Source of the DNA: an uncultured bacterium
GTDB taxonomy: Bacteria > Babelota > Babeliae > Babelales > Babelaceae
Assembly: GCA_963713855.1 (NCBI GenBank)
Contig: OY970209.1
Span: 1,056,001-1,120,000 of the forward strand
DNA length: 64,000 nucleotides
Direction of reading: 5' to 3'
Shown: in pieces, positions 45,679-64,000 of the stretch
How the letters are laid out: each line of letters starts with the position of its first letter
Position numbering within the stretch: the stretch's first letter is position 1
Position numbers and translations under genes: made by a program
The notes under the pieces: generated by a model
Database searches by the model: none
Told to the model about the DNA's origin: nothing
The model's input: the letters and a program-made list of their open reading frames with translations, nothing else

Positions 45679-47967
45679 ATGCAGTTCATGATATTGCTGG
45701 GCCTATTATTGTGTTTTGTGGTCACAAGAATGGAATCAAATAGTAGTTGCTCGTTACAGCCGGGTGTCAATTATCCCTTTCCTGGTTCTTCAGTACCTAC
45801 TTTAGTGGCATTTTCACCGTCAGGCAACTATCTTGCGACTGCCAATGGTGCTTCGAATGATGTTACTCTATTTACGGTAGGAGCCGGGGGAGTATTGGAT
45901 GCTGGTACCACCACTGCTTTACCATCTGGTTCTACACAAGCTATTTCAGTAGCATTCTCACCGTCGGGTAATTATCTTGCTACCGCTAATTATTCTTCAA
46001 ATGATGTAACAGTATTTACCGTAGGGGCTGGAGGCGTTCTGAGTGGGGCGGCATCGTACGCTTTACCAGTGGGTTCTATTAATCCTTTTTCTGTGGCATT
46101 TTCACCTGATGGCTTATATCTTGCAGTGGCAATCGCTAACTCGAATGATGTAGCTATATTTTCAGTAGGCGTTGGTGGAGCATTGAGCGGCGTGACACCC
46201 TACGCTTTACCCCCTGGCTCTACGGGACCTTCTTCAGTGGCATTTTCACCATCAGGCAATTATCTGACCACCGCGAATTCAGGTTCAAATGATGTGACCG
46301 TATTTACGGTAGGATTAGGCGGTGCTTTGAGCGGAGGGTTAAGCTATGCTTTGCCTCCTGGTTCTACAATACCTTCTTCAGTCGTATTTTCCCCATCAGG
46401 CAATTATCTTGCTACTGCTAATTATGGTAATGCCAGTGGTACTACAGTAACGCTATTTCAAGTGGGAGCAGGAGGAGTATTAAGCGGAGGAGTAAGCTCC
46501 GCTTTACCTTCTGGCTCTACAGGGCCTATTTCAGTAGCATTTTCACCGTCGGGTAATTATCTTGCTACTGCTAATTATGCTTCACATGATGTAACCGTGT
46601 TTACCTTAAGTGCAGGAGGAACTTTAAGCACTGGCATATCTTATATTTTGCCTTCGGGTTCTTCTAATCCTCAGTCAGTGGCATTTTCACCATCAGGCAA
46701 TTATTTTGTAACTGTTGATGGTGGCGTAGGTATTCACGTAACAGTATTTATCCTGAATTGTTCAGCAAGCCCAACGATAGTAGGTACTTCCTATCCTTTG
46801 CCCACTGGTTCTCGTGAGCCTCATTCAATAGCTATTTCAAAGAATGGTTTATTTTTGGCAACAGGCAATTACAATTCAAGCGATGTAACGCTATTTTCAG
46901 TAGGTAATGATGACACACTCAGTAGCGCCGCCTCATTCTCGTTACCACTGGGTTCATTGGCACCGGCGAGTATTGCCTTTTCATATGACACATCATACGT
47001 GGCAACAGCAAATAGCAAAACAAATGATGTAACTCTTTTTCACGTAACCGCAGGAGCGCTAGCAGGGGCAACATCATATAAATTACCGAGCAATTCAACT
47101 CATCCCGTTGCGATTGAATTTTCGCCGGATGATGCTTATCTTGTAACTGCTAACAGTCAATCGGGGGATATCACATTGTTCAAAGTAGCAGGAGGAGCAC
47201 TTAGCGATGCTCTTTCTTATACTTTGCCCGCTAATTCAACAAATCCAGTAGCGGTAGCGTTTTCACCCGATGGCTCATATTTAGCGACGGCCAATGCTCT
47301 GTCAAATGACGTCACACTCTTTAACGCCACCAATGGGGTACTAAAAAGTATATCGTCCCATACACTGCCTATTGATTCAAGCATGCCACACTCAGTCGTG
47401 TTTTTACCAACACCTACCGGGATTTTTATAGCAACGGCAAACAGTAATTCAAGTGATATAACACTATTTCCAGTACAGGGGGGTACGTTGGAAACGGGAA
47501 CGTCATATAAATTACCACTCGGTTCAACAGATCTACTATTTATTTCAGCTGCACCACAAGGAACATATCTAGCGACGGCAAATGGTATTTCTAATGTCTT
47601 TACCTTGTTTACGGTGAGCAACGGGATCCTAGGCCAAGGTTTTTCATATAATCTGCCTGGAAATTCGAGTAATGATGTAGCAGTAGCGTTCGCTCCGGTA
47701 CCGACAAGCACAGGAAATGTGTTTCTTGCAACTGCAAACAGCGACTCAAACGATGTATCGGTTGTAACGATTCTTGGTTCTGAGGGAGATGGTAGTAGCA
47801 ACGTTCCTCTCGGTCTTATCTTAGGAATATCTCTGGGAGTTCCTGCGGCTTTTGTGGTTGGAGCAACGGCCATTTCGGCGGGTGCATTTGTTTACTATCA
47901 GTATTGGTATAGGCATCGTGGCCTTCGGAGTGTGAATTATGGTACTGATTCCACGGACACATTATGA
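45679..47967 (+). CDS. Beta-propeller repeat type-I membrane protein (14 blades)
   Basis: ~48-aa repeat SYxLPxGSxxPxSVAFSPxGxYLATANxxSNDVTxF (lactonase/YVTN-like); C-terminal TM and RSVNYG tail. Confidence 0.9.
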   Translation: MQFMILLGLLLCFVVTRMESNSSCSLQPGVNYPFPGSSVPTLVAFSPSGNYLATANGASNDVTLFTVGAGGVLDAGTTTALPSGSTQAISVAFSPSGNYLATANYSSNDVTVFTVGAGGVLSGAASYALPVGSINPFSVAFSPDGLYLAVAIANSNDVAIFSVGVGGALSGVTPYALPPGSTGPSSVAFSPSGNYLTTANSGSNDVTVFTVGLGGALSGGLSYALPPGSTIPSSVVFSPSGNYLATANYGNASGTTVTLFQVGAGGVLSGGVSSALPSGSTGPISVAFSPSGNYLATANYASHDVTVFTLSAGGTLSTGISYILPSGSSNPQSVAFSPSGNYFVTVDGGVGIHVTVFILNCSASPTIVGTSYPLPTGSREPHSIAISKNGLFLATGNYNSSDVTLFSVGNDDTLSSAASFSLPLGSLAPASIAFSYDTSYVATANSKTNDVTLFHVTAGALAGATSYKLPSNSTHPVAIEFSPDDAYLVTANSQSGDITLFKVAGGALSDALSYTLPANSTNPVAVAFSPDGSYLATANALSNDVTLFNATNGVLKSISSHTLPIDSSMPHSVVFLPTPTGIFIATANSNSSDITLFPVQGGTLETGTSYKLPLGSTDLLFISAAPQGTYLATANGISNVFTLFTVSNGILGQGFSYNLPGNSSNDVAVAFAPVPTSTGNVFLATANSDSNDVSVVTILGSEGDGSSNVPLGLILGISLGVPAAFVVGATAISAGAFVYYQYWYRHRGLRSVNYGTDSTDTL

Positions 47968-48004
47968 GCTGGATTCCGGTTTTTGAAAAGTAGTAAGGAG
48001 TAAC

Positions 48005-48328
48005 ATGATGTTGCCTAGAAGTATTCCTCAGAAACATTCTTTTAAGCTTAGTTTTTTTCTTCCATAAGCTCAGTTGCCCAACCTGTTAGCGAAATTAGCT
48101 ATGCTTTGCCCGGTGCCTCTTTCTGGCCTTCCGGTGCACAATTTTCGCCCAACGGTCAGTATCTTGCAACTGCGAATAAAAATGATGTATCAGTTTTTTA
48201 ATGTGCAAGCGGGCGGAACGTTGCTTGCAGGCTCGTCCTCTTTACTACCTCCGGGTACTACGACCCCCTACGCAGCAGTATTTTCGCCTGATAGCTCTTA
48301 TCTAGCTACCGCTAACTTCAATACATAG
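48005..48328 (+). pseudogene. Decayed 5' fragment of a beta-propeller paralog
   Basis: RBS AAGGAG; across frames reads SEISYALPGASFWPSGAQFSPNGQYLATAN..VFSPDSSYLATAN, with several frameshifts, then stops. Confidence 0.85.
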
Positions 48329-48358
48329 GCTGGCTTTAAATCCGAAAAGTTTGGAACA

Positions 48359-51300
48359 TTAAAGCTCTTCTTCCGGTCCGTAATTTACGCTTCCAAGTGA
48401 AGTTCGAGGTCTATGAACGTGCTTATAAATTAAAAAAGCAACTACGCCGGCAGTAGTAAGAAGAACCGCAGTGCCCACAATACCCGCGGTTAATGTTGTT
48501 GCGAGTATGATGGCCAAATCGTTATTGCTGGATAAGCCATCACCACCGTCTCCACCTTGCGCGCCATTGGTGTTACCATCCCCGAAAAGTGAAGCCACCG
48601 TCACATCGTCCGAAAGCGCATTAGCAGTAGCAAGATGTACTCCGTCAGGCGCAAAAGTTATACCTACACATTGTGTTGAGTTAGCTGGCAAGTTAAAAGA
48701 AATCCCCTGGCTTAAGACGCCGTTACTTACCGTAAAAAGAGTGAAGCTGCTTGATGCGCTGTTAGCAGTTGCTATATAGGTACCATTTGTTGATGAAGCA
48801 GCAGCAATTGACTGCGGATTAGTAGTTCCCGATGGTAACGGATATGACTGTCCATTATTCAAAGTGCCAGCTTGAAAGTCAAATACAGAAACGTCATTAG
48901 AGTCACCATTTGCGGTAATGAGTAAGAATGTATTACTCAATGGTAAAAATGCTATAGATTGAGGTCCGGAAGATCCTGTAGGAAGAGCTGTTGATGCTCC
49001 AGAGCTTAAAGCACCTGCGCTAAATGACCATGTCGTTACGTCATTCGAACCATGATTTGCGCTTGCAAGAAAAGCACCGTTAGGTGTAAAAGCAAGAGCC
49101 GCAGGTTCCGTTGAACCTGCCGGTAATGCGTAAGCAGTGGGATTTGTGAGCGATGCACCTGTTATATCAAATACGACAACATTATTTGAATCACGGTTAC
49201 AAACTACAACATAAAGGTCATCGGGTGAAAAAGCGATGCCTGATGGATTTGTTGATCCAGGAGGTAAAGAGTACGATATGGGCTTAATTAATTGGCCACT
49301 ATTAACGTGGAAAAGTGTCACATCATTTGAGTTATGGTTGCCAGTGGCAACTAAAGAATTATTTGCAGAAAAAGCTATCGATGTGGGATTTGAAGGTGTT
49401 TGTAAATTGTAAGGCAATGGAAAAGCCTTTTTTGCGGTGAGTGTAAACGTGTTGTTGCTTGAATTTACGTCAAAAAGTGCAACGTCGCTTGACCCAAAAT
49501 TCGCAGTTACCAAGTATGAGCGATCGGATGAAAAAGATACGGCGCTAGGCCTTTGGGAACTTATTGAAAGTTGTGGCAAAATGTACGACGTTCCCGTATT
49601 AAGGGTTCCGCCCGTTGAGGTAAAAAGAGTGATATCAGAAGAACCCGTATTAGCGACAGCTGTAAACATGCTGTTGGGTGAAATAGCTATTGAATTATCA
49701 AAATAATCGCCCGTTGGTAGTGGATACGTTGCCAGCAAACTAAGTACGCCTCCTGCTCCAACGCTAAATGTCGTAACCTTGCCTATTCCAGTATCAATGG
49801 CTATATATGAGCCATCGGCGGAAAACGCAAGGGAGAAAACGCCGCCGCTTGGTAAACTATATGACGTCGCGCCACTTAAAACTCCTCCAGATCCCACATT
49901 AAACATAGTTACTTGTCCCGAAACAACAGCGAGATGTAAGCCATCGGGCGAAAACGAAAGCGAAGTGGCGCCTGCAAAATAAGAGGGCACTGAGTAACTA
50001 GTGCCTGTACTCAAAGAGCCTCCTACTCCAACACTAAATATTGTCACATTAGATGAGCCGTTAGCGGTAGCTACATATGAGCCATCGGGTGAAAAGGCTA
50101 TTGCCAAAGGATCCCAAGTACTCGCTGGCAACGAATACGACGTTCCCGCGTTCAATGTCCCACCGTTAACCGTAAAAATCGTTACACTACCTGCCAATTG
50201 AGAATCACTGTTTGCTGTAGCAAGGTAATTGCCTGATGGCGAAAAAGCTAGTCCCGAGGGTGCATAAGAACCGACTGGCAGAGGGTATGAGATTCCAGTG
50301 CCGAGTACTTCGCCTGCTTGCACATTAAATACTGTTACGCTGTTTGCATACTTATTAGTGGTTGTAATGTAGGAACCGTTAGGTGAAAATGCAATTGAAG
50401 TAGGCTGTGTGGTATTTGAAATTACCTGGTAAGATGCAGCATTCGATAAAGCTCCGCCTGAGCCAACACTAAATATCGATACGTTGTTTGAGTACCTATT
50501 AGCAGTGGCTAAGTACGCACCATCTGCAGAAAATGCTACCGATTCAGGAGCAATCGAATTTGTAGGCAACGCATAGGTCGTCCCAGCATTTAATGTGCCT
50601 CCCGACTGCACGGTAAATACTGTGACACTATTTGAGAAGGTGTTAGCTGTAACGAGATTGGTGCTATTTGGTGAAAAGGTAATTGAATTAGGCCTTGGAT
50701 TAGAACTTGGTATTGAGTAGGAAGTGCCTGTGCCAAGAGTTTGTCCGGTTACGCTAAACAGGGTCACATCATTAGAACCCGAATTTGCGGTTGCAAGGTA
50801 CTGGCCATTTGGTGAAAATGCAACTGAAGAAGCGTTATTAGATCCTGTCGGCAGCGAGTATGTGGTGGGATTACTCAGAGTACCCCCAGTTCCCACCGTT
50901 AATAGCACAACATTTGAGACGCCGGCGCTGGCCAGAAGTGAGCTATCTGGTGAGAAAGTCGCTGCATAGGTGCCAGTTGCTCCCGAATATGTCGTTGGGC
51001 TACTTAAGGTGCCGTTTGATCCTATGGTAAATAAAACAATTTGTGAGAAATGCGCAACAACGAGATATAAACCGTTGGGGGAAAATGTTAACGAACTTGA
51101 ATAACCGATGTATCCATCGAGAAAAGCAGTGGGGCCGAGTGAGTAGGAGTTTCCCACATTAAGGATGCCTCCCACGCCAACTGTAAATATCGTTACGTCT
51201 CCTGATTCGAAGTTTACCGTTGCAAGAAATGAACCATCTGGTGAAAAGGCGATCGATTGGGGAGAAAGCGAGCCGCTAGGTAAAGGATACGTAGCAGCGC

Positions 51301-51664
51301 CGCTCAGCACTCCACCAGCTCCAACTTGAAATATGGTTACGTCGTTGGTAAATGAATTAGCAGTAGCAAGGTATAATCCGTTAGGCGAAATCACTGAGCA
51401 ACTGGGAGGCGTTAATCCTACCGGTAATCGATAAGAACTCATTGCACTAAGCGCTCCAGTTCCCGATACGCTAAATATTGACACATCGTCAGAACCATTA
51501 GCGCTAGCAAGGTATGATCCATTAGGCGAAAATACTGCAGCATTAGGCCATTTAGAAACGCCTGGCAAAGGGTAGCTGATCTCGCTGAGTGCTTTACTCA
51601 GACAGTTCCAAGAAATAAGACTTAAGCTAAAAAGTAAGTATCGTACGCTTGATTGAGCCGTCAT
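48359..51664 (-). CDS. Beta-propeller repeat type-I membrane protein (21 blades)
   Basis: Signal peptide, repeats, TM, GSVNYGPEEEL tail. Confidence 0.92.
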   Translation of the reverse strand: MTAQSSVRYLLFSLSLISWNCLSKALSEISYPLPGVSKWPNAAVFSPNGSYLASANGSDDVSIFSVSGTGALSAMSSYRLPVGLTPPSCSVISPNGLYLATANSFTNDVTIFQVGAGGVLSGAATYPLPSGSLSPQSIAFSPDGSFLATVNFESGDVTIFTVGVGGILNVGNSYSLGPTAFLDGYIGYSSSLTFSPNGLYLVVAHFSQIVLFTIGSNGTLSSPTTYSGATGTYAATFSPDSSLLASAGVSNVVLLTVGTGGTLSNPTTYSLPTGSNNASSVAFSPNGQYLATANSGSNDVTLFSVTGQTLGTGTSYSIPSSNPRPNSITFSPNSTNLVTANTFSNSVTVFTVQSGGTLNAGTTYALPTNSIAPESVAFSADGAYLATANRYSNNVSIFSVGSGGALSNAASYQVISNTTQPTSIAFSPNGSYITTTNKYANSVTVFNVQAGEVLGTGISYPLPVGSYAPSGLAFSPSGNYLATANSDSQLAGSVTIFTVNGGTLNAGTSYSLPASTWDPLAIAFSPDGSYVATANGSSNVTIFSVGVGGSLSTGTSYSVPSYFAGATSLSFSPDGLHLAVVSGQVTMFNVGSGGVLSGATSYSLPSGGVFSLAFSADGSYIAIDTGIGKVTTFSVGAGGVLSLLATYPLPTGDYFDNSIAISPNSMFTAVANTGSSDITLFTSTGGTLNTGTSYILPQLSISSQRPSAVSFSSDRSYLVTANFGSSDVALFDVNSSNNTFTLTAKKAFPLPYNLQTPSNPTSIAFSANNSLVATGNHNSNDVTLFHVNSGQLIKPISYSLPPGSTNPSGIAFSPDDLYVVVCNRDSNNVVVFDITGASLTNPTAYALPAGSTEPAALAFTPNGAFLASANHGSNDVTTWSFSAGALSSGASTALPTGSSGPQSIAFLPLSNTFLLITANGDSNDVSVFDFQAGTLNNGQSYPLPSGTTNPQSIAAASSTNGTYIATANSASSSFTLFTVSNGVLSQGISFNLPANSTQCVGITFAPDGVHLATANALSDDVTVASLFGDGNTNGAQGGDGGDGLSSNNDLAIILATTLTAGIVGTAVLLTTAGVVAFLIYKHVHRPRTSLGSVNYGPEEEL

Positions 51665-51930
51665 GAAGCTCTCCCTTTTAAGACCATGTTTTCATGTACC
51701 AATATCGATTGGAAGAACAAACTAATGCAAAGTGTCTTTTGCAACCACCACCAATTTTACGTTCGGGTAAATATAGCACTCATGGTTCTTTTGTCAATCG
51801 GACTATAGATGAACTTATGGCTTGCATTCTCATCTGATAAAGATAGTCCTTTAATAGCTTCGACAATGCCAAGTGGCTTTTCCTGAGCGGTGCGTCTTCA
51901 TAAAATGCTTCTACTTGCCGTAGCTCTTTT

Positions 51931-53789
51931 TTACGAAAAATTAACCGTACCTGTTCTTGATCGAACCCTATAGTAGTGGTACTTATAGCCTGCAAAGCCA
52001 ATAAGGGAAGCTGCGATAGCGACTGCCGCAAGCCCCAGCGGCACTCCTACCGTTGTTCCAACAATGACGCTTATGGGTAAGCCGTTGCTTCCATCCCCCG
52101 TTCCTGCAGCGCCAAGCAACGGTGAAATTGACACGTCATTTGAATAGAGATTTGCTGTACCGATTGAGCCACTTCCGTCACTTGCCAATAAAAAAACTAC
52201 AGCAACACCGTCGGTGGAGTTGCCAGGCAAATCATATGACGCCTGACTATTTAAAGTGCCTCCTGAAAGATTAAATAAAACAATACTATTTGATCCGCTG
52301 TTAGCTGTTGCAAGATAGGCTCCACCAGGCGATATTGCTAGCCACTGAGGGCTTACATTTCCTTCAGGAAGTGAATACGATTGTGCACTGGTGAACGTAT
52401 CTGCTTGTATACGAAAGATGGTTACATCATTTGAATCGCTATTACATGTAGCAAGAAATAAGTTATTTGCTCCGTCAGTAAAAAAGCTCAGCGATTGGGG
52501 CTTATTTGAGTTAACGGGCAGTGGTTGTGAAATTCCGTTGGTCAAAATGCCACTGGAAACCTTAAAGAGTGTTATATCGTTTGATCCTATGTTGGCTGTG
52601 GCACAGTAAGTACCGTCAGGTGCAAAAGCAATCGCTACTGGATTTGAAGAACCGTTAGGCAACATATATGAAAGAGGACCAACCAAAGAGCCTGCTGCGA
52701 AGTTGAACACTGTTACATCGTTTGACTGGCTATTTGCTACAGCAACATGCATATCATCGGGTGAAAATTCGATTGAGATGGGATTTTTAGAGCCTGTTGG
52801 TAAACGATACGACTGTGCTTTAGTTAATTGTCCACCTACGACGTTAAAGAGGGTAAGGTCATTTGAGTTACCGTTAGCTGTTACCAAGTAGGTTGTATTA
52901 AGAGAAAAGGCTGAGGACAAGGGGTTTGTTGAATTAACCGGTAAAGGAAATGATTGTCCCGAATTGAGCGTTATCTGATTGTTGTTTTGACTCACAGGAA
53001 ACAGTGTTACATCGCTTGATTGATAATTTGTTGTGGCAAGATACGATCCATCTTGGGAACGCTCGATTGAGCCTGGCTCAATCGAGTGAGCTGGCAAGGG
53101 ATATGAAGTTCCGTGAGGAACAAGACTACCACAGATAAGCGTAAAGAGTGTTACATTATTTGAGGTTTCGTTTGCAGTAACAATATAGGCACCATTAGGT
53201 GTAAATGCTATTGATGAAGGGTTGCGAGCCCCGGGCGGTAACGGATACGACGTGCCATTAGTAAGTCTTCCAGCAGAAACAGTAAATATGGTGACGTCAT
53301 TTGATGTATTATTAGCAGAAACCAAAAAAGAACTATCCGGTGAGAATGCCAGTGAAATAGGAAAACTAGAGCTTGCAGGAACAGGATACGAAGTTCCTGA
53401 GCTGAGAACGCCACCAGCTCTTACGGTAAATAGTGTTATATCGTTGGTGGAATTAGCAGTTGCAAGGTACTCTCCGTTTGGTGAAAATGCTATTGAGTAA
53501 GGACCACTCGAGCCGATAGGCAAAAAATACGTGCATGGTAGATTAAGGACCCCGCCCGGATTTACCGTAAATACAGTTACAGTGCTGTAAAATTATTAGC
53601 GGTTGCCAGATATGAGCCGTCTGGTGAAAATGCTGCCTCATGAGGTGCCGTATAGTGCGTAGCCGGTGGCAAACTATAACTAACGCCAGACAATGTAGGG
53701 CACAAATTTTGAGCTCCCATGCTATGGGTAAAAACAAAAACTAGAAGTGCGCACACAGAAAGAAAAACGTTACCCACTATAAAGAACAT
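51931..53789 (-). pseudogene. Beta-propeller membrane protein (4+7 blades) with frameshift near 53588
   Basis: ORF 53577..53789 (signal + blade 1) joins 51931..53523 via STVTVFTVNPGGVLNLPCTYFLP after a 1-nt shift. Confidence 0.85.
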
Positions 53790-53829
53790 AGCAAATTCCT
53801 CACTTCATTCTACTTGAGACATTCGGCTG

Positions 53830-53857
53830 AAAGTAGCATGAATGATTTTTTTGTCAA
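53830..53857 (-). promoter_or_regulatory. Putative sigma70 promoter
   Basis: Minus strand TTGACA-16 nt-TACTTT. Confidence 0.4.
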
Positions 53858-53957
53858 TTCTTGTTAACTGTTAAATAAACTAATGAACAATTGGAAGAAA
53901 GCATGCTTCGTGCCCCGGTATTCTACGCGTAAAAATCCTTGCATAGAATAACCTCCT

Positions 53958-54040
53958 GGTTCCAATAATAACCCCGAGCGGAAGGCTACTGCCATCTCCT
54001 TTCTGGCCACTACCACCAAAAAGCGAAGCAACACTCAATG
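53958..54040 (-). pseudogene. Relic of propeller-family linker/TM start
   Basis: Minus strand reads LSVASLFGGSGQKGDGSSLPLGVIIGT. Confidence 0.7.
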
Positions 54041-54202
54041 ATCTTGATGTTGATCAAACGTGCTAGCGCAGATAGAATTCACACATTCTATTCTGATTTG
54101 CTATTGCATTTTTAGTGTTGTATCATTTTGCATGTATTGCTTGCAATTAGTTAGAGCGCATCTTGTAAGCATATGCTAGAAGAAAAGAGGAGAAATGAGG
54201 CT

Positions 54203-57200
54203 ATGTTTTCTTATTACATGCGAAGATACTTTATTCTGTACATCATTATGCTCGGTTGCATGAGTTCCCAAGCAATCATAGAAGATAGTTATTCTTTACC
54301 GGGAGCTTCCCGTTGGCCAACCGATGGAGAGTATTCGCCCAATGGCCAGTATCTTGCGACGGCAAATTTAGATGACGTATCTTTATTTACGGTCGGTACT
54401 GGAGGGGCTTTACAACAGGGAACTTCGTATTCATTGCCTCCTGGCCCTACGACGCCTTATAAAGAAGCCTATTCATATGATGGTGCTTATTTGGCTACAG
54501 CTAACAATGCGACAAGCGATGTAACTGTTTTTACGGTAGGTTCAGGAGGAACTTTAAATAACCCTGCGTCATACCCATTACCTGCAAGCTCTTCCACCCC
54601 TCAGGGTATAGCTTTTTCTCCCAATGGTTTATATCTTGCTACCGCTAATAACTCCAATGATGTAACAATATTTTCAGTGTCGGGTGGCACCTTAGGTAAT
54701 GCTCTTTCCTATGCTTTACCGACTGGAAGCACCAGTCCTTATTCAATTGCTTTTTCTCCTGATAGCTCGATTTTAGCTGTCGCTAACCGCGACCCTGTTC
54801 CTGGAAGTGTTACCCTATTTACAGTCCAAACGGGAGGTGCATTGTCCAACGGAACATCTTATACATTACCCGGTTCATCACAGGAACCTTTTGGACTAGC
54901 GTTCTCACCCAATGGTTTGTATCTCGTTACAGCTAATTTTGCCTCAAATGATGTAACTATTTTTGATGTTGGGACAGGAGGCACTTTAAACAGTGGAACA
55001 TCTTATGCGTTACCTACAGGCTCTAGTGGGTCGCTTTCAGTAGCGTTTTCGCCAACAGGTGCATATCTTGCTACAGTCAACGATTCTGATGATGTAACTG
55101 TCTTTAGCGTCCAAACAGGAGGCGCGTTAACCGGCGCAGCATCCTATCCTTTACCCTCGGGATGCACCGCCCCTTGGTCGATAGCTTTTTCACCCTCGGG
55201 CAATAATATTGCTACTGCTAATAGCACCTCAAATAACGTTAGTGTTTTTAACGTTGGAGCGGGTGGTGTTTTAAGCGGTGGTACGGCATATACGTTACCC
55301 GCCGGCTCTACTAGTAGTTTTGATGTAGCATATTCACCTACAGGATCTTATTTAACTTCACTTAACGGTGCAGGTGGTGGCATCGGCAATCTCTCCGTCT
55401 TTACTGTCAGCTCGGGTGGAGCGCTAAGCGGAGGTACTACCTATCAGGTGATATCGGACTCACTCCAGCCGCAGGCAGTTGCTTTTTCCCCTAATAGCGC
55501 ATACCTTGCTGCGGTCACCTCTCTATCTGAGGCTGTCACAGTCTTTACGGTTGGGTCGGGCGGCGTTCTGAATAATGGTCTTTTATACTCAATACCTTCG
55601 GGTTCTAAGTATCCTACCGACGTTACATTTTCACCGTCAGGCAATTATCTTGCTACCACTAATGAGAGCTCAAATGATGTAACCATGTTTAATGTAGGAG
55701 TAGGAGGTGCTCTGAGCGGCGCTACATCATACCCACTTCCTGGCGCTGCCGTCGCCCCTCGTGCTTTAAGGTTTTCACCCAATAGCAATTATCTTGCTGT
55801 TGCCGCAAATCGTTATATAGTGATGTTTACGGTAACAGGCGGTACCCTGACAGGAGGTACGGCGTATCTCACTCCTGGAATTTCGTTTCCTACCTCTTTA
55901 GCATTTTCTCCTAGTGGTGCTTATCTTGCTGTAACAATAACTTCTACAACCAATCGGATTGTAACTGTGTATAACGTTGGATCAGGGGGAGCCCTCAGCC
56001 TTAATGCTTCGTACGCTCTGCCTACCGGTGAGTCACCTGTCTCAGTTGCCTTTGATTCCACAGGTTCTTATCTTGCTATTGCAAGTACTAGTTCAGGTAA
56101 TCTCCTTCCTGGCAACGTGTTTCTCTTTTCCGTAGGATCAGGTGGAGCATTAAGCGGTCAGACAACCTATCCATTACCAGCAGGTTCTTTCGAACCAGTT
56201 ACCGTATCTTTTTCTCCAAGCGGGTATCTTGCCGCTGCTGATACGCAATCATCGACAGTAAGCGTATTTAGCTTAAGTGGAGGCACGTTGACAGGAGGAA
56301 CTACCTACCGACTACCGCCTTTATTTAGAGGATCACGCGAGCCTAATGCGGTAGTCTTCTCGCCAGATCGTTCATTCTTGGTAACAGCAAACTATCAGAC
56401 AAGCGATATAACCGTTTTTGATGCAGAGTATACGAACAACAACATTACGCTAGGAGCAAAAAAATCTTATCCGTTGCCCTTTAGTGGTCAAGCGTCATTA
56501 CCTACATCAGTAACGGTCTCAGCTGATAATGCATATATTTTGACAGCAAACGCTAATACCAATGATGTCTCGGTGCTTTCGTTAGTGGGGGGTAAAGTAA
56601 CAAATGCGGTCTCATACCCGTTGCCAATCAATACACTGGATCCTCGTTCTATACAGTTTTCTCCCGATAATTTCTATGTTCTTGTTGCAAACGTTGGGTC
56701 GGATACTATTACGGTCTCTCCATTCAACGCGGGTGTTTTAGGGAATGGAACTGCGTATGCATTGCCTGCAGGGGGCTCTGACCCTCAAGCTATTGCAATC
56801 ACACCCGACGGTTCATATGTAGCTAGTGCCAATTATCTGTCAAATAACGTGGCAGTATTTCCGTTTGCTTCAGGTGCGCTAGGCGGTGGAGCGCTTACCT
56901 CATTACCTACCGGGGCTTCAGGACCACAGTCTCTCGTTTTTATCCCGTTACCGGGCAATGCGCTTATTTTAGCTACCGCTAATGGTGGTTCTAATGACGT
57001 TACCGTTTTTGATTTTCAAGCCGGCGCTTTAACAAATGCACAATCTTATCCTCTGTCTGTCAGTGATTTTAATCCACAATCGATAGCATCCACGCTAAAT
57101 GGTGCGTATCTTGCAACAGCTAATAGTGATTCTAGCACCTTTACACTTTTTACGGTTAACGGCGGAAATTTGTTGCTGAATGGTTCTTTTCCATTGCCAG

Positions 57201-57526
57201 CAAACTCTACAAGGTGCGTTGCTATAAACTTTGCCCCGCGCAATGCAACCACTCCAGGCGTTGAAAATCTTGTAACGGCTAACTTTGAGTCGAATAGTGT
57301 AACTACAGGCTCTTTTGGGTCGCTATTTCCAGTAGGTGACGGTAGCAATAGCGGTGGAGGGGGAGATGGTTTGGGATCAAGTGGTGCCACTACCATCATT
57401 CTAGCAACCGTTTTGCCAATCACCATCGTGGGAGGAATGCTTTTGTTGACCGCTGCTGGCGTAACCGCATGCTTGGTTTATCGGTATATGCATAGACCGC
57501 GTGCTGAATCAATGGTTAACTATTAA
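54203..57526 (+). CDS. Beta-propeller repeat type-I membrane protein (21 blades)
   Basis: Signal, repeats, TM, RPRAESMVNY tail. Start at 54203 or 54218. Confidence 0.92.
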   Translation: MFSYYMRRYFILYIIMLGCMSSQAIIEDSYSLPGASRWPTDGEYSPNGQYLATANLDDVSLFTVGTGGALQQGTSYSLPPGPTTPYKEAYSYDGAYLATANNATSDVTVFTVGSGGTLNNPASYPLPASSSTPQGIAFSPNGLYLATANNSNDVTIFSVSGGTLGNALSYALPTGSTSPYSIAFSPDSSILAVANRDPVPGSVTLFTVQTGGALSNGTSYTLPGSSQEPFGLAFSPNGLYLVTANFASNDVTIFDVGTGGTLNSGTSYALPTGSSGSLSVAFSPTGAYLATVNDSDDVTVFSVQTGGALTGAASYPLPSGCTAPWSIAFSPSGNNIATANSTSNNVSVFNVGAGGVLSGGTAYTLPAGSTSSFDVAYSPTGSYLTSLNGAGGGIGNLSVFTVSSGGALSGGTTYQVISDSLQPQAVAFSPNSAYLAAVTSLSEAVTVFTVGSGGVLNNGLLYSIPSGSKYPTDVTFSPSGNYLATTNESSNDVTMFNVGVGGALSGATSYPLPGAAVAPRALRFSPNSNYLAVAANRYIVMFTVTGGTLTGGTAYLTPGISFPTSLAFSPSGAYLAVTITSTTNRIVTVYNVGSGGALSLNASYALPTGESPVSVAFDSTGSYLAIASTSSGNLLPGNVFLFSVGSGGALSGQTTYPLPAGSFEPVTVSFSPSGYLAAADTQSSTVSVFSLSGGTLTGGTTYRLPPLFRGSREPNAVVFSPDRSFLVTANYQTSDITVFDAEYTNNNITLGAKKSYPLPFSGQASLPTSVTVSADNAYILTANANTNDVSVLSLVGGKVTNAVSYPLPINTLDPRSIQFSPDNFYVLVANVGSDTITVSPFNAGVLGNGTAYALPAGGSDPQAIAITPDGSYVASANYLSNNVAVFPFASGALGGGALTSLPTGASGPQSLVFIPLPGNALILATANGGSNDVTVFDFQAGALTNAQSYPLSVSDFNPQSIASTLNGAYLATANSDSSTFTLFTVNGGNLLLNGSFPLPANSTRCVAINFAPRNATTPGVENLVTANFESNSVTTGSFGSLFPVGDGSNSGGGGDGLGSSGATTIILATVLPITIVGGMLLLTAAGVTACLVYRYMHRPRAESMVNY

Positions 57527-57779
57527 CAGAGAGCGACTTTGGTGGGACTGTGTTACGTGGCGGAATCGTCCATTCGAGGAATATGAATATGCCTGTTGCC
57601 TAACTATTGCTGTATTGCTCATCTTCGAGCAGGAAAATGAGCTTGAGACTCTTGAGCTCCTACTGCACCCACAAATCAGCATTCCAAAAGCCTTGTTTAA
57701 AGTTTCCCCCGCAGAGGGAAGTTTTTTAGAAAAATTTCCTTCCAAAAGGGAAAAAATCTCTATATATGTCCAGTATAGA

Positions 57780-58045
57780 GGGAAAGAACTGGTGAAGGTG
57801 ATAAAGAGGCCGATTTTGTGCTTCTTATGCCTGACCAAACAATTAACCTTTTTCAAGTGTGCTTATCGATGCAATCATTGGATACTCGTCGTAGAGAAAT
57901 TGCAGGATTAGAAGATGCTATGAAAGAGCTCAATCTGAAAAACGCTTGCATAATAACGCTTGAGGAGGAAGAAAAAATTACGTCACCTGTGGGTGAGATT
58001 GAGGTTGTACCTGCATGGAAATTTTTTCTCCATCGGAGCATCTAA
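57780..58045 (+). pseudogene. C-terminal remnant of an AAA_14/DUF4143 ATPase
   Basis: EADFVL...FQVC...TRRREIAGL..AMKELNLK...IIT..EEE....IEVVPAWKFFL. No intact upstream ATPase frame. Confidence 0.75.
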
Positions 58046-60315
58046 AGCTGCGCCTCTTCACCGAAGTTAACTGTTCCTCTGTGCCTGTAGTGATGCACGT
58101 ATTTCCACAAGAGCCAAGAGCCTATAGCCGCAACTATTGCAACCCCACCAAGTACGATCGGAACTCCAACGCTTATACCAATAATAGCACCCAGAGGCAC
58201 ACTTGAACTTCCGCCACCATTTCCATTTGTTCCTTCATTGCCAAATAGAGCGAATACTGAAACGTCATTAGAACCGCTATTAGCGGTTGCGATGACCGTG
58301 CCTCCACCATTTACGTCGGAAAAGGCCACCGATACGTCTCCTTTAGAAGTAGATGGCAAGCCAAAGGAAGTACCCTGGCCTACTATGCCACTTGTTACAT
58401 TGAAGAGTGTGATGCTATTTGAGCCTCTATTGGCTGTTGCAAGAGAGGTCCCATTTATTGAAGCAGCAATAGCAACTGGTCCCACTTCGCTTAAAGGCAA
58501 TGGGTAAGACAGACCTGCGCCAAGACCTCCGTTAACAGGAAAAATGGTAACGTCATTTGAATCGCTATTTGAGGTAGCGATGAATAGATTGCTCTTTTCC
58601 GGCACAAAAACGAGTGAGCGAGGTCTATTAGAACCTGAAGGCAACGGCTGAGAAGCTATGCTCTTTAAAGAACCTTGAGTTACATTAAAAAGAGTCACAT
58701 CATTAGAAGCAACGTTTGCTGTTGCAAGATATAGGTCACCGGGCGAAAAAGCGACAGCGACAGGTTGAAGTGACCCAGCAGGAAGTGCATAAGAAAGAGC
58801 TCCTGTTAACGCTCCTGAAAATACTTTAAAGACAGTAACATCACTGGAGTTACTATTTGCAACAGCAAGATAGGCACCATTTGATGAAAAATCAATCGAC
58901 ACCGGCTCAACAGAACCAGCAGGCAAAGCATACGAAGCACCAGAAGCTAGTTGTCCCCCAGTTACAACAAATAGCGTTACATCATTGGACTTACTATTAG
59001 AGGTTGCAAGATAGTTATTATCGTCTGAAAATGCGACCTCGGAAGGGTGTCGCGAACCAGCTGGTAAAGGATACGAGACACCATTTGTGAGCGAACTGTT
59101 TGCATTGACCGCGAATAACGAAACATCGCTGCTATTATAGTTAGCAGTTGCAAGATACACATTATTAAGAGAGAAAGCTACCGAATCGGGCTCTTGAGAT
59201 TGGGGCGGCAACGGGTAAGAGGTTGACGGACTTGCAAGGCTGTTTAAGCAGCCGGGTGCTGCAAACATTGTTACATTGTTCGAAGTAAAGTTTGCGGTAG
59301 CAAGATAGAGGCCTGAAGGAGAAAATGCGGCATCGGTTGCGCCCGTAGACCCAGCAGGAGTTGCATATGATGTGGCCCCGCTCAATACGCCACCCGAGCT
59401 CATTGCAAATACCGTGACGGTACTCGAAGTTTGATTGGCTACTGCAATATTGGTACCATCAGGGGAAAAACTAAGCAACGATGACCCGGCGGTTCCTGAG
59501 GGAAATGGATAGGAAGTTGCTCCGCTTAATGTGCCTCCCGCACCGACCGTAAAAACAGTCATGTCTTCCGAACCCTTGTTAACTGTGACCAAATAAGCTC
59601 CTGAAGGAGAAAAAGCAACAGTATCAGGAGTTGTAGATCCGCTAGGTAAGGGATACGATGTGGCACCACTTAATGCACCCCCGGTTCCAACCGTAAAGAC
59701 GGTGACGTTGTTTGTTACTGGGTTACACGTTGCCGCATAAGCACCCGAAGGTGAGAATACAATGATATGCGGATTAGTTGAGCCACCCGGCAATGCATAA
59801 GAGGCGCCCACACTTAGGGCGCCTCCACTTCCAACTTGAAATATAGTCACGTTGGCTGAATTATAATTGGCAACAGCCAAATATGCACCATTAGGCGAAA
59901 AAGCTACAGAATACGGACTTGTGCCGGCTGGAACGGGATACGAGGTCGCGCCACTTAATACTCCTCCGGGCCCTACTTGGAATACTGTCACGTCATTGGA
60001 ATTATAGTTGGATGTAGCAAGGTAAGCTCCAGAAGGAGAAAATGCTGTTAATGTTGGCAACAGAGAGCCTCCAGGCAACGGATACGACATTCCAGTACTT
60101 AAAATTCCGTCCGAGCTGACAGTAAACATCGTAACGTCATTTGAATTATTATTGGCTGTGGCTATATAAGCACCGGAAGGAGAAAATCGCGATGCGCCAG
60201 GGACCGTGGAGCCGCCAGGCAGTGGATAAGTTGTTCCTGATTGCAGTAAGCAAGCACCAGAAACGGTGACAGTGTTACACAAAATGAGAGCAAAGTATAT
60301 AAGAGCAAGCTTCAT
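58042..60315 (-). CDS. Beta-propeller repeat type-I membrane protein (14 blades)
   Basis: Start moved to MKLALIYF (RBS AAGGA); GTVNFGEEAQL tail. Confidence 0.92.
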   Translation of the reverse strand: MKLALIYFALILCNTVTVSGACLLQSGTTYPLPGGSTVPGASRFSPSGAYIATANNNSNDVTMFTVSSDGILSTGMSYPLPGGSLLPTLTAFSPSGAYLATSNYNSNDVTVFQVGPGGVLSGATSYPVPAGTSPYSVAFSPNGAYLAVANYNSANVTIFQVGSGGALSVGASYALPGGSTNPHIIVFSPSGAYAATCNPVTNNVTVFTVGTGGALSGATSYPLPSGSTTPDTVAFSPSGAYLVTVNKGSEDMTVFTVGAGGTLSGATSYPFPSGTAGSSLLSFSPDGTNIAVANQTSSTVTVFAMSSGGVLSGATSYATPAGSTGATDAAFSPSGLYLATANFTSNNVTMFAAPGCLNSLASPSTSYPLPPQSQEPDSVAFSLNNVYLATANYNSSDVSLFAVNANSSLTNGVSYPLPAGSRHPSEVAFSDDNNYLATSNSKSNDVTLFVVTGGQLASGASYALPAGSVEPVSIDFSSNGAYLAVANSNSSDVTVFKVFSGALTGALSYALPAGSLQPVAVAFSPGDLYLATANVASNDVTLFNVTQGSLKSIASQPLPSGSNRPRSLVFVPEKSNLFIATSNSDSNDVTIFPVNGGLGAGLSYPLPLSEVGPVAIAASINGTSLATANRGSNSITLFNVTSGIVGQGTSFGLPSTSKGDVSVAFSDVNGGGTVIATANSGSNDVSVFALFGNEGTNGNGGGSSSVPLGAIIGISVGVPIVLGGVAIVAAIGSWLLWKYVHHYRHRGTVNFGEEAQL

Positions 60316-60367
60316 CAAAACAATCCTTTTATAATAGCTAATTATGCAAGCGCTGAGTGCCAGAGCT

Positions 60368-60395
60368 AAGCTATCAGTCGCGAGGAAAATGTCAA
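60368..60395 (-). promoter_or_regulatory. Putative sigma70 promoter
   Basis: Minus strand TTGACA-16 nt-TAGCTT upstream of ATG 60315. Confidence 0.4.
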
Positions 60396-60462
60396 TTTTG
60401 AGAGGAGGCAAATCTTTCTTTAACGAACGTTTTCCTTTGACGATTCGTGGAAGCACAGCGAT

Positions 60463-60594
60463 GCAATAGTTAATTTGCTTGCAATTTTCTTTTGTGTGTA
60501 TAAAACTACACAGCGGCTTTGGACAGATCGAAAAATTCCCTACCACAGTAACGTGAATTTCGGTGGGAGCGAATCAGCCGAAGGGAGCTTATAA
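60463..60594 (+). pseudogene. Relic of propeller-family TM end and cytoplasmic tail
   Basis: Plus strand AIVNLLAIFFCVYKTTQRLWTDRKIPYHSNVNFGGSESAEGSL*. Confidence 0.6.
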
Positions 60595-60640
60595 AATTTG
60601 CTGATCCCCAAATCGACTTAGAGATTAGCAGACTTTTTAT

Positions 60641-63600
60641 TTAGAGTGTTTCCATGGACTCTTTGCCAGCAAAGTTAACGCTTCCATCACGTTGCCTATG
60701 TGTGTATCTGTATATTAAATAGCCGGTCAAAGTTCCAGCAGCTACGATAAGAGTAAGGCCAACAGGGATTCCTAACGACAATCCAATAATAAGGCCTAAA
60801 GGCGTATCACTACCTCCGGAACCACCGCCCGATTGCGTGCCAAGGATCGTAGACAGCGAAACATCATCGGAGCCCTTATTAGCTGTTCCATAGAAAATGT
60901 TTCCATTATTGCTAAGAACTGGTGAAAATGCGATTGCAACACAGTTACTCGAATTACCTGGTAAATCGTAGGTAGTGCCTTGACCAATAACACCATTGGT
61001 AACGTTAAAAACGACCACAGTGCTTGAGCCGCTATTAGCAGTTGCAATGTAAGAATTCTGTGGCGATCCTGCAATAGAACTCGGTTGCGCGTTTCCTTGT
61101 GGCAAGTGGTATGATAAGCCGCTGCTCAATGTGCCCCCGTTAACAGTAAAACTCGTTATATCATTAGAGCCGCTATTAGCACTTAGGAGGTATAGGCTAT
61201 TTAAAGAGGGTAAAAAGAGAACTGATTGAGGAGCTGTGGATCCATGCGGTAAAGTATATGACGTTCCGCCATTCGGTACGCCGTCAGTTAGCGTGAAAAA
61301 AGTGACATCATTAGAATTAAAGTTTGCCGTTGCGACGTACGCTCCGTTTGGCGAGAAAGTAATTGAAACGGGTTTTGTTGAGCCTGCAGGCAGAGCATAA
61401 GAAGCTCCTCCCGATAGCGTTTGTCCAACTACATTAAATATCGTTATATCGTTTGAATTATCATTCGCTACGGCAAGATATGTATTATTGGGAGAAAAAG
61501 CGACGGCGGTGGGCCCAAGGCTTCCCGCAGGTAATGCAAATGATTGCGCTGCTGTTAATAGTTGTCCTATTACTTTAAAAAGGGAGATGTCATTTGATTG
61601 ACTGTTTGCCACCGCCAAATAAGTATCATCTATAGAAAAAGCGACTGCAGAAGGATGAGATGAACCTGATGGAAGTGAGAATGAAGATCCCTTGGAAATC
61701 GTATCTACCCCATTGGTTGTGTTAGTTATGAACAAGCTTACATCGCTTGAATTATAATTTGCTGTCGCAAGATACACTCCATTATGCGAGAATGCTACTG
61801 CATCCGGTTCATGAGACCCGCTCGGTAGTGGATAAGAAGCACCCGTGCTTGTAAAGTTACCGCAGGCAAAAAGGGTAACAGCACCCGACGTATCAGCTGT
61901 AGCAATATACGAACCAGTTGGTGAGTAGGCTACTGAATTTGGATATGCCGAACCCTGGGGAAAAGAATACGTTACAGGATTAGTTAAAATCCCGCCAGCT
62001 ACGGTAAAAGTAGTCAAATCATTTGAACCATAATCAGCGGTAACAAGGTACGCGCCGTCCGGTGAAAAGGTTAGCGAAACTGAATTTGTAGCGCCCGTAT
62101 TTACTGGATATGAAATAGCTCCACTTAAGACTCCTCCAGCTCCTACGTTAAACAGGGTAACGTCATTAGAAATTAAGTTAGCTAAAGCGAGATACAATCC
62201 ATTTGGTGAATAAGCTACAGAATGCGGCGAGAGCGAACCCGCTGGTAGTGGGTATGTACTAATGCTACTTAAAGTTCCTCCTGCTCCTACAGCAAAAATG
62301 GATACGTCGTTTGACGCGGCATTGGCCGTTGCCACGTATGCGCCTGTAGGTGAAAAAGCTATCGATAGTGGATCAAGAGCACCTCCAGGTAAAGTATACG
62401 ATGCAACTACAGTAAGAGCGCCGCCCACGCCCACACTGAACATTGTCACAGTAGCTGAAAGCCCATTGGCGACCGCAAGATAATTTCCTGAGGGCGAAAA
62501 TGCTAATGAGTAGGGACCGGTATTACCTGCAGGTAATGCATACGATGTGCCTGTTGTCAAAACTCCGGCGTTTACGTTGAATATCGTTATATCATCAGAG
62601 TTATAATTAGCAGTTGCGCACAGAGCTCCATTCGGTGAAAAACTAACTGACAGTGGAAATAAAGACCCGGATGGTAAAGCATACAAGGTGCCTGAGTTGA
62701 GCGCATCGGTTTCTACTCCAAATACTGTTATGCTGTTAACATTGGGATTAGCAGTTACAAGCTGTGAGCTATTGGGAGAAAATGTGACTTTAAAGGGCTG
62801 CGTGGAAACAGATGCTAATGAATATGAAGTAGCTGCAGTAAGAATACCTCCGGCCCCTACCGTAAACAGGGTTATATCATTTGAATTGTAATTAGCTGTA
62901 GCCAGATAAGCGTTATTGGGCGAAAATGCCACATATTGTGATCCCGTTGATCCAGACGGTAACGTGTAGGTAGCACTCGTGCTGAGCACTCCCCCTGCTC
63001 CTACATTAAATACGACTACATTGTTTAAAGAAGTAGCTGCTGCCAAATACAAGCCATCAGAAGAAAATGCCACTGAATTGCAGGAAGATCCTGATGGTAA
63101 TGCATAGGAAACGCTACCACTAAGCACACCTGAGTTTACTTGAAATATCGTTACATTTGTTGAGCCGTTACCTGTTGCAAGATACGAACCGTTAGGAGAA
63201 AATACAACCGATTTTGGGCTTGTAGAACCTGAAGGCAACGAATAACTTGTAGCTGCGCTAAGTGCTCCACCCGCCCCCACAGTAAATATGGTTACATTAT
63301 TAGAAAGTTCATTAGCTGTTGCAAGATATGAACCATTTGGCGAGAAAACTACTGAGTTAGGTGATTGAGAACCGCTTGGTAAAGCATAAGAGACAGCGCC
63401 AGACAGAACGCCCCCCGAACCCACGCTAAATATTGTCACATCACTCGAACCCTGATTAGCTGTAGCTAAATAAAGATTGTTGGGAGAATATGCTAGTCCA
63501 ACGGGCTTCATAGAGCCTGTCGGTAGAGAACTATAAGAATCTCCTACAGAAGTAACATCACCACTTGCAACAACCTGATACACGATTATGCCGTATTCGT

Positions 63601-63943
63601 TAGGAAAGCCTTGATTAAGCGCTATAGCCGGTGTAGCCATATATAAGCTATTGGGTGAAAATGCTAGCGATATCGGTTGAGCAACTCCTGGAAGAACGTT
63701 AGAAGGAAAACCGGTTAAAGTTCCTTGCGATGTCACCGCGAATGTTGCTATGTTATCTGAGAGGCTATTAGCAGTTGTCAGGGATAAGCCGTTTGGTAAA
63801 AAAGCAAGGCAGGTAGGGCCGACCGGGTTGGAGGGCATCGGAAAATTAGTTCCAACTAACCTACATAGAGCAGAAATTCTGCTATCTGATAACATGAAAA
63901 AAGCAAAAACAAGGAGTACATATTCGATAGTCTTTTTCGTCAT
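60641..63943 (-). CDS. Beta-propeller repeat type-I membrane protein (21 blades)
   Basis: Start MTKKTIEY (RBS GAGG); GSVNFAGKESMETL tail. Confidence 0.92.
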   Translation of the reverse strand: MTKKTIEYVLLVFAFFMLSDSRISALCRLVGTNFPMPSNPVGPTCLAFLPNGLSLTTANSLSDNIATFAVTSQGTLTGFPSNVLPGVAQPISLAFSPNSLYMATPAIALNQGFPNEYGIIVYQVVASGDVTSVGDSYSSLPTGSMKPVGLAYSPNNLYLATANQGSSDVTIFSVGSGGVLSGAVSYALPSGSQSPNSVVFSPNGSYLATANELSNNVTIFTVGAGGALSAATSYSLPSGSTSPKSVVFSPNGSYLATGNGSTNVTIFQVNSGVLSGSVSYALPSGSSCNSVAFSSDGLYLAAATSLNNVVVFNVGAGGVLSTSATYTLPSGSTGSQYVAFSPNNAYLATANYNSNDITLFTVGAGGILTAATSYSLASVSTQPFKVTFSPNSSQLVTANPNVNSITVFGVETDALNSGTLYALPSGSLFPLSVSFSPNGALCATANYNSDDITIFNVNAGVLTTGTSYALPAGNTGPYSLAFSPSGNYLAVANGLSATVTMFSVGVGGALTVVASYTLPGGALDPLSIAFSPTGAYVATANAASNDVSIFAVGAGGTLSSISTYPLPAGSLSPHSVAYSPNGLYLALANLISNDVTLFNVGAGGVLSGAISYPVNTGATNSVSLTFSPDGAYLVTADYGSNDLTTFTVAGGILTNPVTYSFPQGSAYPNSVAYSPTGSYIATADTSGAVTLFACGNFTSTGASYPLPSGSHEPDAVAFSHNGVYLATANYNSSDVSLFITNTTNGVDTISKGSSFSLPSGSSHPSAVAFSIDDTYLAVANSQSNDISLFKVIGQLLTAAQSFALPAGSLGPTAVAFSPNNTYLAVANDNSNDITIFNVVGQTLSGGASYALPAGSTKPVSITFSPNGAYVATANFNSNDVTFFTLTDGVPNGGTSYTLPHGSTAPQSVLFLPSLNSLYLLSANSGSNDITSFTVNGGTLSSGLSYHLPQGNAQPSSIAGSPQNSYIATANSGSSTVVVFNVTNGVIGQGTTYDLPGNSSNCVAIAFSPVLSNNGNIFYGTANKGSDDVSLSTILGTQSGGGSGGSDTPLGLIIGLSLGIPVGLTLIVAAGTLTGYLIYRYTHRQRDGSVNFAGKESMETL

Positions 63944-64000
63944 TCCATACCTCACCACCACCTCTTTGACCGATCGAATTACCTGGAGACTTTCGCGATG

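Follow-up and report, generated by a model that had tools for sequence, protein, structure and literature searches.

The 64,000-nucleotide stretch of bacterial DNA analysed in this study (hereafter the window; contig OY970209.1, positions 1,056,001 to 1,120,000) encodes a series of paralogous propeller proteins that end in one C-terminal module, composed of a Gly/Ser linker, a long transmembrane (TM) segment, a basic patch and a short tail with the motif VN[FY]. This anchor-tail module is almost certainly shared with membrane proteins of Acanthamoeba, and it probably reached the bacterium by transfer. Judged from the sequences, the odds are about even that the module is a host-derived anchor with a sorting tail that would likely be read by host machinery. 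In the following, G000 denotes the genome holding the window, G001 a sister genome of the same genus and G008 a genome of another genus in the same family.

All seven paralogs of the window share this layout with a hydrophobic segment of about 31 residues, and the C-terminal ends quoted for them in the original prediction were correct throughout. As it had claimed, an acidic stretch followed by a terminal Leu closes five of the seven proteins, an internal Pro lies within the TM segment of six (announced for most), and the linker contains an exact GDGS in four (announced as often). VN[FY] had been described as invariant, which is true of the window (7/7) but does not extend to the family, as the motif is present in 27 of 43 tails of G000 and 25 of 33 tails of G001, i.e. 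in 52 of 76 genome tails (55/76 for the broader pattern [VI]N[FYW]). In a set of 87 bacterial tails, [VI]N[FYW] occurs 60 times compared with a mean of 1.3 (maximum 7) in 2000 tail shuffles, a comparison in which the paralogs are not independent of each other. Two G001 tails (L037:182-3538 and L035:136-1098) contain the motif twice in tandem, VNY and then INY or VNY, before the acidic-Leu end, and three G000 paralogs (G000:C1 1045330, 1122796 and 1154461) have a short tail ending in SV[SA]L in place of the motif.

The propeller is represented in G000 by 86 open reading frames (ORFs) or fragments, corresponding to 9.6% of its bases, and over half of this family ends in the host-like module. A profile built from the seven window tails matched 45 places in G000 and 35 in G001, with two marginal matches in 59 other relatives; at an E value of 0.001, the tail was present in two of 261 genomes of the phylum, both belonging to one genus. 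G008 has 23 propeller matches and no tail match. Of the C-termini inspected there, some stop at the last blade, and the others have a Ser/Thr linker followed by a short stretch of hydrophobic or amphipathic character. Further carriers were identified among database proteins, of which P0001 is only 37% identical and ends in VNW. A third class of propellers lacks the TM segment and has a Ser/Thr-rich linker with an amphipathic C-terminal stretch of about 20 residues; it may represent an older state or a separate export signal.

An alignment of 79 tails (43 from G000, 33 from G001 and three database proteins, after removal of one false match, two fragments from G001 and four G000 rows that were frameshifted or partial) contains V in 63 and N in 60 rows, forming a clear local peak. 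Column entropy was 1.8-1.95 bits at V, N and F/Y, 2.5 bits at the preceding G-S, 3.0-3.3 bits in the two columns ahead of these and 2.7-3.2 bits in the three columns following the motif. This dip shows VN[FY] to be more conserved than its neighbouring columns; equal conservation would have spoken against the original prediction. Its view that the TM segment had diverged is oversimple, since Ile, Gly and Gly in the first, N-terminal half of the segment (75, 71 and 72 of 79 rows) and the last Tyr of a YKY motif (69/79) match or exceed the conservation of V and N. Over the 76 genome tails, the ratio of non-synonymous to synonymous differences (pN/pS) was 0.43 at VNF, 0.39 at YKY and 0.37 in the last blade, compared with 0.77 and 0.80 in the flanks of the motif. 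Pairwise pS was 0.57-0.74 in all regions, meaning that enough time has passed since duplication for neutral sites to change. In the 55 tails with the motif, V is encoded by four different codons and the terminal Leu (47/55) by all six. Selection on VN[FY] and the terminal Leu thus acts at the protein level. The uncharged TM run is also unusual within this genome, with a family median of 32 residues versus a median of 20 and a maximum of 26 in the 27 other G000 proteins with a signal-like start and one C-terminal TM segment.

When 1.84 billion representative proteins were searched with the seven-tail profile, which includes the motif itself, 47 matches were obtained, comprising 20 propeller-family and 27 non-propeller proteins; 22 of the latter carry [VI]N[FYW] after the TM segment and two are unrelated. 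Twenty matches were looked up, and one has a species name, ACA1_236820 of Acanthamoeba castellanii Neff. A search for longer proteins with an alignment of the amoebal-type sequences yielded seven matches, all ending in [VI]NF and including ACA1_367650 and ACA1_031990, and six of them were significant on the outer domain alone. The amoebal-type proteins are type-I membrane proteins with a supersandwich domain ahead of the linker, and a signal peptide was seen in both full-length named Acanthamoeba proteins. One relative weakly matches ComC_SSD (PF22933, E 5e-4), and in the Atlas the outer domain reaches a TM-score of 0.62 to a cluster of GLMP-like lysosomal proteins. The best hit of a VIA-align fold search (Z 7.9; 8r8q_B, root-mean-square deviation 4.3, 162 aligned), a chain that we take to be GLMP, is tied with unrelated glycoside hydrolase domains and serves as a lead only. 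Two short amoebal-type matches have an HFT motif, presumably GPS-like, which argues that other outer domains use the module too.

Because the first matches had been picked with the motif, the test was repeated with sequences chosen by the outer domain only. Patterns from the end of this domain retrieved nine metagenome loci (GC 0.57-0.63; GC at third codon positions 0.74-0.96), of which two run off the contig and one loses the frame; the remaining six were used. When their profile was run against 32,534 G000 frames, the propeller family accounted for all 27 matches at E<0.01 and for all 38 at E<1. Likewise, all 11 G000 matches to a profile of the three named Acanthamoeba proteins belong to this family, and a profile-profile comparison of the bacterial and amoebal-type modules (hhalign) gave 98.1% with an E value of 1e-13 over 71 columns. 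With sequences chosen without the tail, linker, TM segment and tail profile therefore place the bacterial module together with the type-I anchor and tail of Acanthamoeba. A domain-only protein search with residues 345-560 of ACA1_367650 returned only this protein itself, and an Atlas search with the bacterial tail gave no usable match.

The likeness spans the region from an LLG at the end of the amoebal outer domain to the last residue. Like the bacterial family, ACA1_236820, ACA1_367650 and ACA1_031990 have a Gly/Ser linker after LLG, a TM segment of about 31 residues with an internal Pro in most, a basic patch, [VI]N[FYW] 9-16 residues further on, an acidic stretch and a terminal Leu. The uncharged segment mostly measures 28-33 residues in 87 bacterial rows and 28-34 in 29 amoebal-type rows, and V follows it after 9-13 and 9-16 residues, respectively. 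The terminal Leu is present in 62/87 bacterial and 26/29 amoebal-type tails, and the ratio of acidic to basic residues after the motif is 131:16 and 77:7. In contrast, the Acanthamoeba outer domains, one of which has RCC1-like repeats, are unrelated to lactonase propellers, and the Acanthamoeba TM segment is rich in Val, while that of the bacterial family is rich in Gly and Thr. Furthermore, the Acanthamoeba proteins are made at the host endoplasmic reticulum, so their topology is certain, unlike that of the bacterial family.

Could this similarity reflect convergence or inertia, i.e. a generic eukaryote-style Gly/Ser linker with a long TM segment of small residues, and a tail likeness caused by composition bias and a recent paralog expansion? 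The amoebal-type TM segments do score weakly to models of fungal SKG6/Psg1 and TMEM154, short low-complexity profiles inflate E values, and the TM compositions differ. Moreover, in a 104-row tree (70 bacterial and 34 eukaryote-type rows, with rows lacking a motif-like tail left out) the two kinds of module are split by one branch with 100/100 support and do not nest within each other. On the other hand, almost all of the non-propeller matches in 1.84 billion proteins bore the motif instead of being assorted fungal or animal TM segments, and the likeness continues from LLG to the last residue. Given that synonymous sites are close to saturation and V, N, F/Y and Leu were nevertheless kept, inertia is excluded, and we consider this explanation as a whole improbable. 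A transfer from amoeba to bacterium is favoured only on the grounds of distribution, namely one bacterial genus with the tail, tail-less propellers in another genus, and several outer domains on the eukaryotic side. A giant virus or phage was rejected as the source, as viral contigs yielded no relative of the amoebal domain and none of 78 propeller-bearing viral loci gave a tail match at E<0.5.

The original prediction had named a dedicated bacterial sorting factor as one possible reader of the tail. The family indeed resembles the substrates of GlyGly-CTERM/rhombosortase (PMC3237569, PMC6219818), PEP-CTERM and LPXTG systems in its signal peptide, Gly/Ser-rich stretch, C-terminal TM segment, basic cluster and many copies, and in the presence of a type II secretin. 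Read from the sequences, the motif-TM-basic order with a signal peptide agrees with GlyGly-CTERM proteins. One could therefore imagine an undescribed system of this type, in which a rhombosortase-like membrane enzyme would cleave at the Gly/Ser linker or read the tail and hand the propellers over to type II secretion; the linker-TM-basic order with GDGG or GDGS, the two secretins of G000 and the many substrates per genome would fit. However, no CTERM model in NCBIfam or Pfam matched seven 80-residue tails at E values up to 10, and no PEP-CTERM/LPXTG-type signature precedes the TM segment in the tail alignment. In G000, which is 91% complete, no match was obtained for rhomboid (PF01694; 14/14 controls positive), sortase (PF04203), CPBP (PF02517) or exosortase (PF09721), the last being a weak test with only 1/14 controls positive. 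These negative results make a bacterial CTERM system unlikely. Mixed cargo and a rhombosortase of matching distribution are the defining traits of GlyGly-CTERM (PMC3237569), while the present substrates are one family only. In this genome the tail is confined to propellers: every match at E<0.1 is either a propeller ORF or a fragment next to one, and a general sorting signal of this bacterium was ruled out by its absence from all 27 other proteins of like topology. Nor did a peptidase or transporter recur among 99 neighbour genes, in which no recurrent partner was found beyond an ankyrin-like cluster of 12 and two pairs. In addition, the longer TM segment and the conserved motif and terminal Leu beyond the basic cluster set the family apart from CTERM and LPXTG proteins, and the module also occurs in eukaryote proteins. 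A CTERM-type system is thus very improbable, and the suggested sorting factor is left unsupported.

The alternative offered by the original prediction, a host cytoplasmic adaptor, gains real support from the Acanthamoeba proteins with the same anchor and tail and from a dileucine sub-class described below. The bacterium likely lives inside amoebae. Its genome (one contig, 1.52 Mb, 41% GC) has hallmarks of Babelota (Dependentiae, TM6), being small and containing, by profile search, two tandem secretins and three tandem ATP/ADP translocases, with no ketoacyl synthase found at 91% completeness, and BamA identifies a two-membrane bacterium. Correspondingly, two gspD copies, ATP/ADP translocases, a lack of fatty-acid synthesis and a degenerate outer membrane are reported for TM6/Dependentiae (PMC4776705), and Acanthamoeba is listed as a Babelota host (PMC12172432). 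The Babelota isolate Chromulinavorax appears to shed vesicles in the food vacuole (PMC6561590). Both secretin genes (G000:C1 253699-259557, minus strand) are unusually long, with an open frame of about 1000 aa each.

We hypothesize here that an older propeller family, with a Ser/Thr linker and amphipathic helix as seen in another genus, acquired in a single event the 3' part of a gene for an amoebal membrane protein and then expanded to about 45 copies. After Sec export, the propellers would leave the envelope, most plausibly by the two-secretin type II system or in shed vesicles, and finally become inserted across the vacuolar or a different host membrane, with the propellers in the lumen and the tail in the host cytosol. 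The factor by which the host recognizes VN[FYW] and the terminal Leu of its own proteins might then retain or recycle the bacterial propellers, which may serve as a variable coat or tether where bacterium and host meet. In favour of a host reader, which we consider an even bet, selection in the bacterium still maintains the same residues as are conserved in the amoebal family, and the tails of that family are exposed to the amoeba cytosol. The full scenario, in which a Babelota genus captured an amoebal anchor with its address label, put it onto dozens of propellers and installs them in host membranes with neither a type III nor a type IV machinery, is put forward more tentatively.

TM effectors with host sorting motifs are already known, but they are injected and single. 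Salmonella SteD is a TM effector with an inverted dileucine, described as convergent, that engages AP1 (PMC9182567), and Legionella MavE has a C-terminal TM segment with NPxY and tyrosine motifs (PMC7885109). As in these bacterial membrane proteins with a short host-type sorting motif, the propellers would work through their tails. SteD and MavE are single effectors that rely on type III or IV delivery, whereas the propeller family has about 45 paralogs that begin with signal-like sequences, and it matches a host family over its entire anchor and tail. Neither FlhA/SctV (PF00771) nor VirB4 (PF03135) had a match in G000, so no type III or IV system was found.

Several observations weigh against a host-read tail of amoebal origin. 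The combination of signal peptide and C-terminal TM segment in a two-membrane bacterium leaves the tail by default in the bacterial cytoplasm, beyond host reach, and with no FlhA/SctV or VirB4 found there is no known route for a TM protein into a host membrane; the reported vesicle shedding and the degenerate TM6 outer membrane make exit routes conceivable. A literature search for a type II precedent (PnlH) for the extraction of TM-anchored cargo gave no result. The motif is not universal, as 21 of 76 bacterial tails lack [VI]N[FYW]. In amoebal-type tails it is likewise common rather than universal: among the six tails selected by domain, two near copies end in VNW-acidic-Leu, two near copies in LDY-acidic-DQL, a fifth shows ANF and a longer acidic tail, and the last is without motif. 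The TM segment contains 17% Gly and 15% Val in the bacterial family, compared with 7% Gly and 39% Val in the amoebal type. The tree is unrooted and gives no direction of transfer, only three amoebal-type carriers bear names (19 of the 20 looked up do not), and the module may be wider than Acanthamoeba. N-glycosylation sequons are not enriched in the propellers (504 versus 543 in shuffled sequences), and passage through the host endoplasmic reticulum was rejected on this basis.

A possible, if rather doubtful, alternative is that the host-derived anchor stays in the bacterial envelope and the propellers are plain type-I proteins of the inner membrane or of a degenerate envelope. The default Sec topology and the failure to find an injection system are consistent with this, as are the conserved Gly zipper and YKY and the loss of the motif in some tails; without a ketoacyl synthase, host-type lipids could favour a host-type anchor. 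VN[FY] and the terminal Leu would then be kept because the tails pack together or touch the membrane, or because a partner in the bacterial cytoplasm, for instance a quality-control protease, recognizes them. Against this, other single-pass proteins of G000 keep short TM segments, and a bacterial partner would need a chance preference for the residues, spacing and terminal Leu of an amoebal family. Moreover, no bacterial reader suggests itself for the dileucine sub-class, PDZ matches in G000 (three) are confined to two ORFs, and an ssrA-like degron was dismissed since the tag of the transfer-messenger RNA (tmRNA) lacks VN[FY].

To return to a reader in the host, a small sub-class of single propellers has a related TM segment and a tail ending in ExxxL[LIV] plus 1-7 residues, with variation of the three middle residues; this holds for 7/7 members seen. 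The acidic dileucine sorting signal has the form [DE]xxxL[LIV] in a short tail after the TM segment, which the members of this sub-class match. Dileucine is not enriched in the whole set (5 versus a shuffle mean of 1.7, maximum 7), and the carriers are kin, which also counts against a host reader and leaves the sub-class as supporting evidence only. The Retriever ligand RICT also ends in acidic-Leu (PMC11589680, PMC12491506), and the pocket that binds it is described as conserved to amoebae (PMC11589680). The present tails resemble RICT and SNX17 in their acidic tail and terminal Leu, with an upstream Asn-aromatic pair in the case of SNX17. The RICT-type end [ILV]-x-[DEQN]-x-x-L, however, is found in only 3/87 bacterial and 0/29 amoebal-type tails, and RICT was rejected as a model. 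The commonest end is [DE]-x-L (36/87 bacterial, 15/29 amoebal-type tails). Class I PDZ ligands end in [ST]-x-hydrophobic, a pattern present in 11/87 bacterial and 4/29 amoebal-type tails and thus a poor fit. Gly-rich TM segments are described to direct surface targeting in Dictyostelium (PMC4510845), which is a lead only.

Pfam Lactonase (PF10282) was the best match of all eight family ORFs in the window (E 3e-25 to 7e-63; Table 1). An AlphaFold model of the 762-aa paralog based on a 16-row alignment (mean pLDDT 81, pTM 0.50) contains 56 strands as two 28-strand blocks, a disordered linker, a helix at residues 712-746 and a disordered tail, and double seven-bladed propellers were its top Foldseek matches. 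The lengths of the family fall into classes near 400, 770, 1110 and 1440 aa, suggesting one to four propellers in tandem. The proteins are predicted to be Sec-exported, with signal peptides called by eye and a hydropathy rule. By Pfam match and by the two 28-strand blocks, they belong to the fold family of seven-bladed lactonase propellers, from which they differ in being tandem (by length), exported and anchored; lactonase activity is no part of our claim. The tuf, fusA and rplB genes are also split over several frames in this assembly due to indel errors (G000:C1 838586-844439). The breaks in the paralogs at 7007..10321 and 51931..53804 may therefore be assembly indels as well, and these copies need not be pseudogenes.

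Table 1. Propeller genes and their C-terminal features. Positions refer to the window unless a genome or locus is given; TM, transmembrane segment.
Feature	Position	Strand	Remarks
762-aa paralog	45679..47967	+	signal-like N-terminus, two predicted 7-bladed lactonase-type propellers, linker, TM, VNY tail
Uncharged 32-residue TM segment of 762-aa paralog	47803..47898	+	
VNY motif of 762-aa paralog	47932..47940	+	followed by acidic residues and terminal Leu
Short propeller N-terminal fragment	48052..48328	+	two frames; decayed copy or assembly error
1101-aa paralog	48359..51664	-	TM 48425-48517, VNY 48380-48388; putative three-propeller size class, from length
Paralog split over two frames	51931..53804	-	530-aa ORF 51931-53523 and signal-bearing piece 53577-53804
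TM and VNF motif of split paralog	51985-52083 (TM), 51937-51945 (VNF)	-	one residue more, then end of tail
Orphan linker and TM-start fragment	53880..54053	-	decayed tail
1117-aa paralog	54173..57526	+	uncharged run (linker end and TM) 57368-57481; VNY 57515-57523 is the C-terminus
834-aa ORF, two-propeller class	58042..60546	-	uncharged run 58105-58218; VNF 58063-58071; true start probably a later ATG
1106-aa paralog	60641..63961	-	TM 60710-60805; VNF 60671-60679
Seventh paralog, three frames	7007..10321	-	frames 8381-10321, about 8133-8420, 7007-8242; TM 7070-7162, VNF 7025-7033
Third-class (TM-less) propellers	G000:C1 813493-814698, 1233042-1234316, 1234629-1235921, 1430832-1432073, 1178339-1179565 and others; G008 loci L144, L155		
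Dileucine sub-class	G000:C1 146068-147381, 725993-726181, 1441495-1442769; G001 loci L039, L040, L018; P0009		one G001 member a fragment

Some further genes of the window and the genome were recorded. Divergent from the first propeller gene lies the gene of an AAA ATPase whose N-terminus is signal-like and which also contains a hydrophobic stretch (window 43943-45412, minus strand). Three genes with signal-like starts (24072-30505, minus strand) encode a transglutaminase-like core with a von Willebrand factor A domain (vWA; 1059 aa), a MoxR-type AAA protein (514 aa) and a leucine-rich repeat protein (543 aa), and the MoxR-vWA pair among them looks exported. Signal-like starts were also noted in two ORFs that by eye resemble mannose-1-phosphate guanylyltransferase (4230-5372, plus strand) and a glycosyltransferase (3231-4124, plus strand). 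The product of 21983-22753 (minus strand) has a signal-like start and a short C-terminal TM segment followed by YLNFG, and is unmatched by the tail profile. A recombinase-like ORF (11374-12099, minus strand; phage Bet/RecT type by eye) lies among secreted-protein genes. Elsewhere in the genome, paralogous Cys-rich, secreted-looking proteins adjoin propeller genes (G000:C1 1137043-1137918 and 1434792-1435859), and the tmRNA (G000:C1 447048-447423, minus strand) has a tag that is unassignable by ARAGORN and ends in AFA.

The literature search, with few subscription papers within its reach, found no paper on a Dependentiae propeller family or the present tail, and no function is described in the literature searched for the tail of ACA1_236820, ACA1_367650 and ACA1_031990. 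The analysis draws attention to a conserved tail motif of Acanthamoeba membrane proteins that seems to have escaped study. If our hypothesis is true, VN[FYW] with its acidic-Leu end would be an undescribed amoebal sorting signal, and the propellers would use an undescribed route that places bacterial integral proteins in host membranes. The propeller tails give a testable handle on the way in which Babelota, equipped with Sec and type II components only, remodel their hosts. Should the tail be read by the host, this would be mimicry by capture of a whole anchor-plus-signal module and not by convergence of a few residues; should it not be, the family would still provide a clear example of a bacterium in which selection maintains a membrane anchor of eukaryote type.

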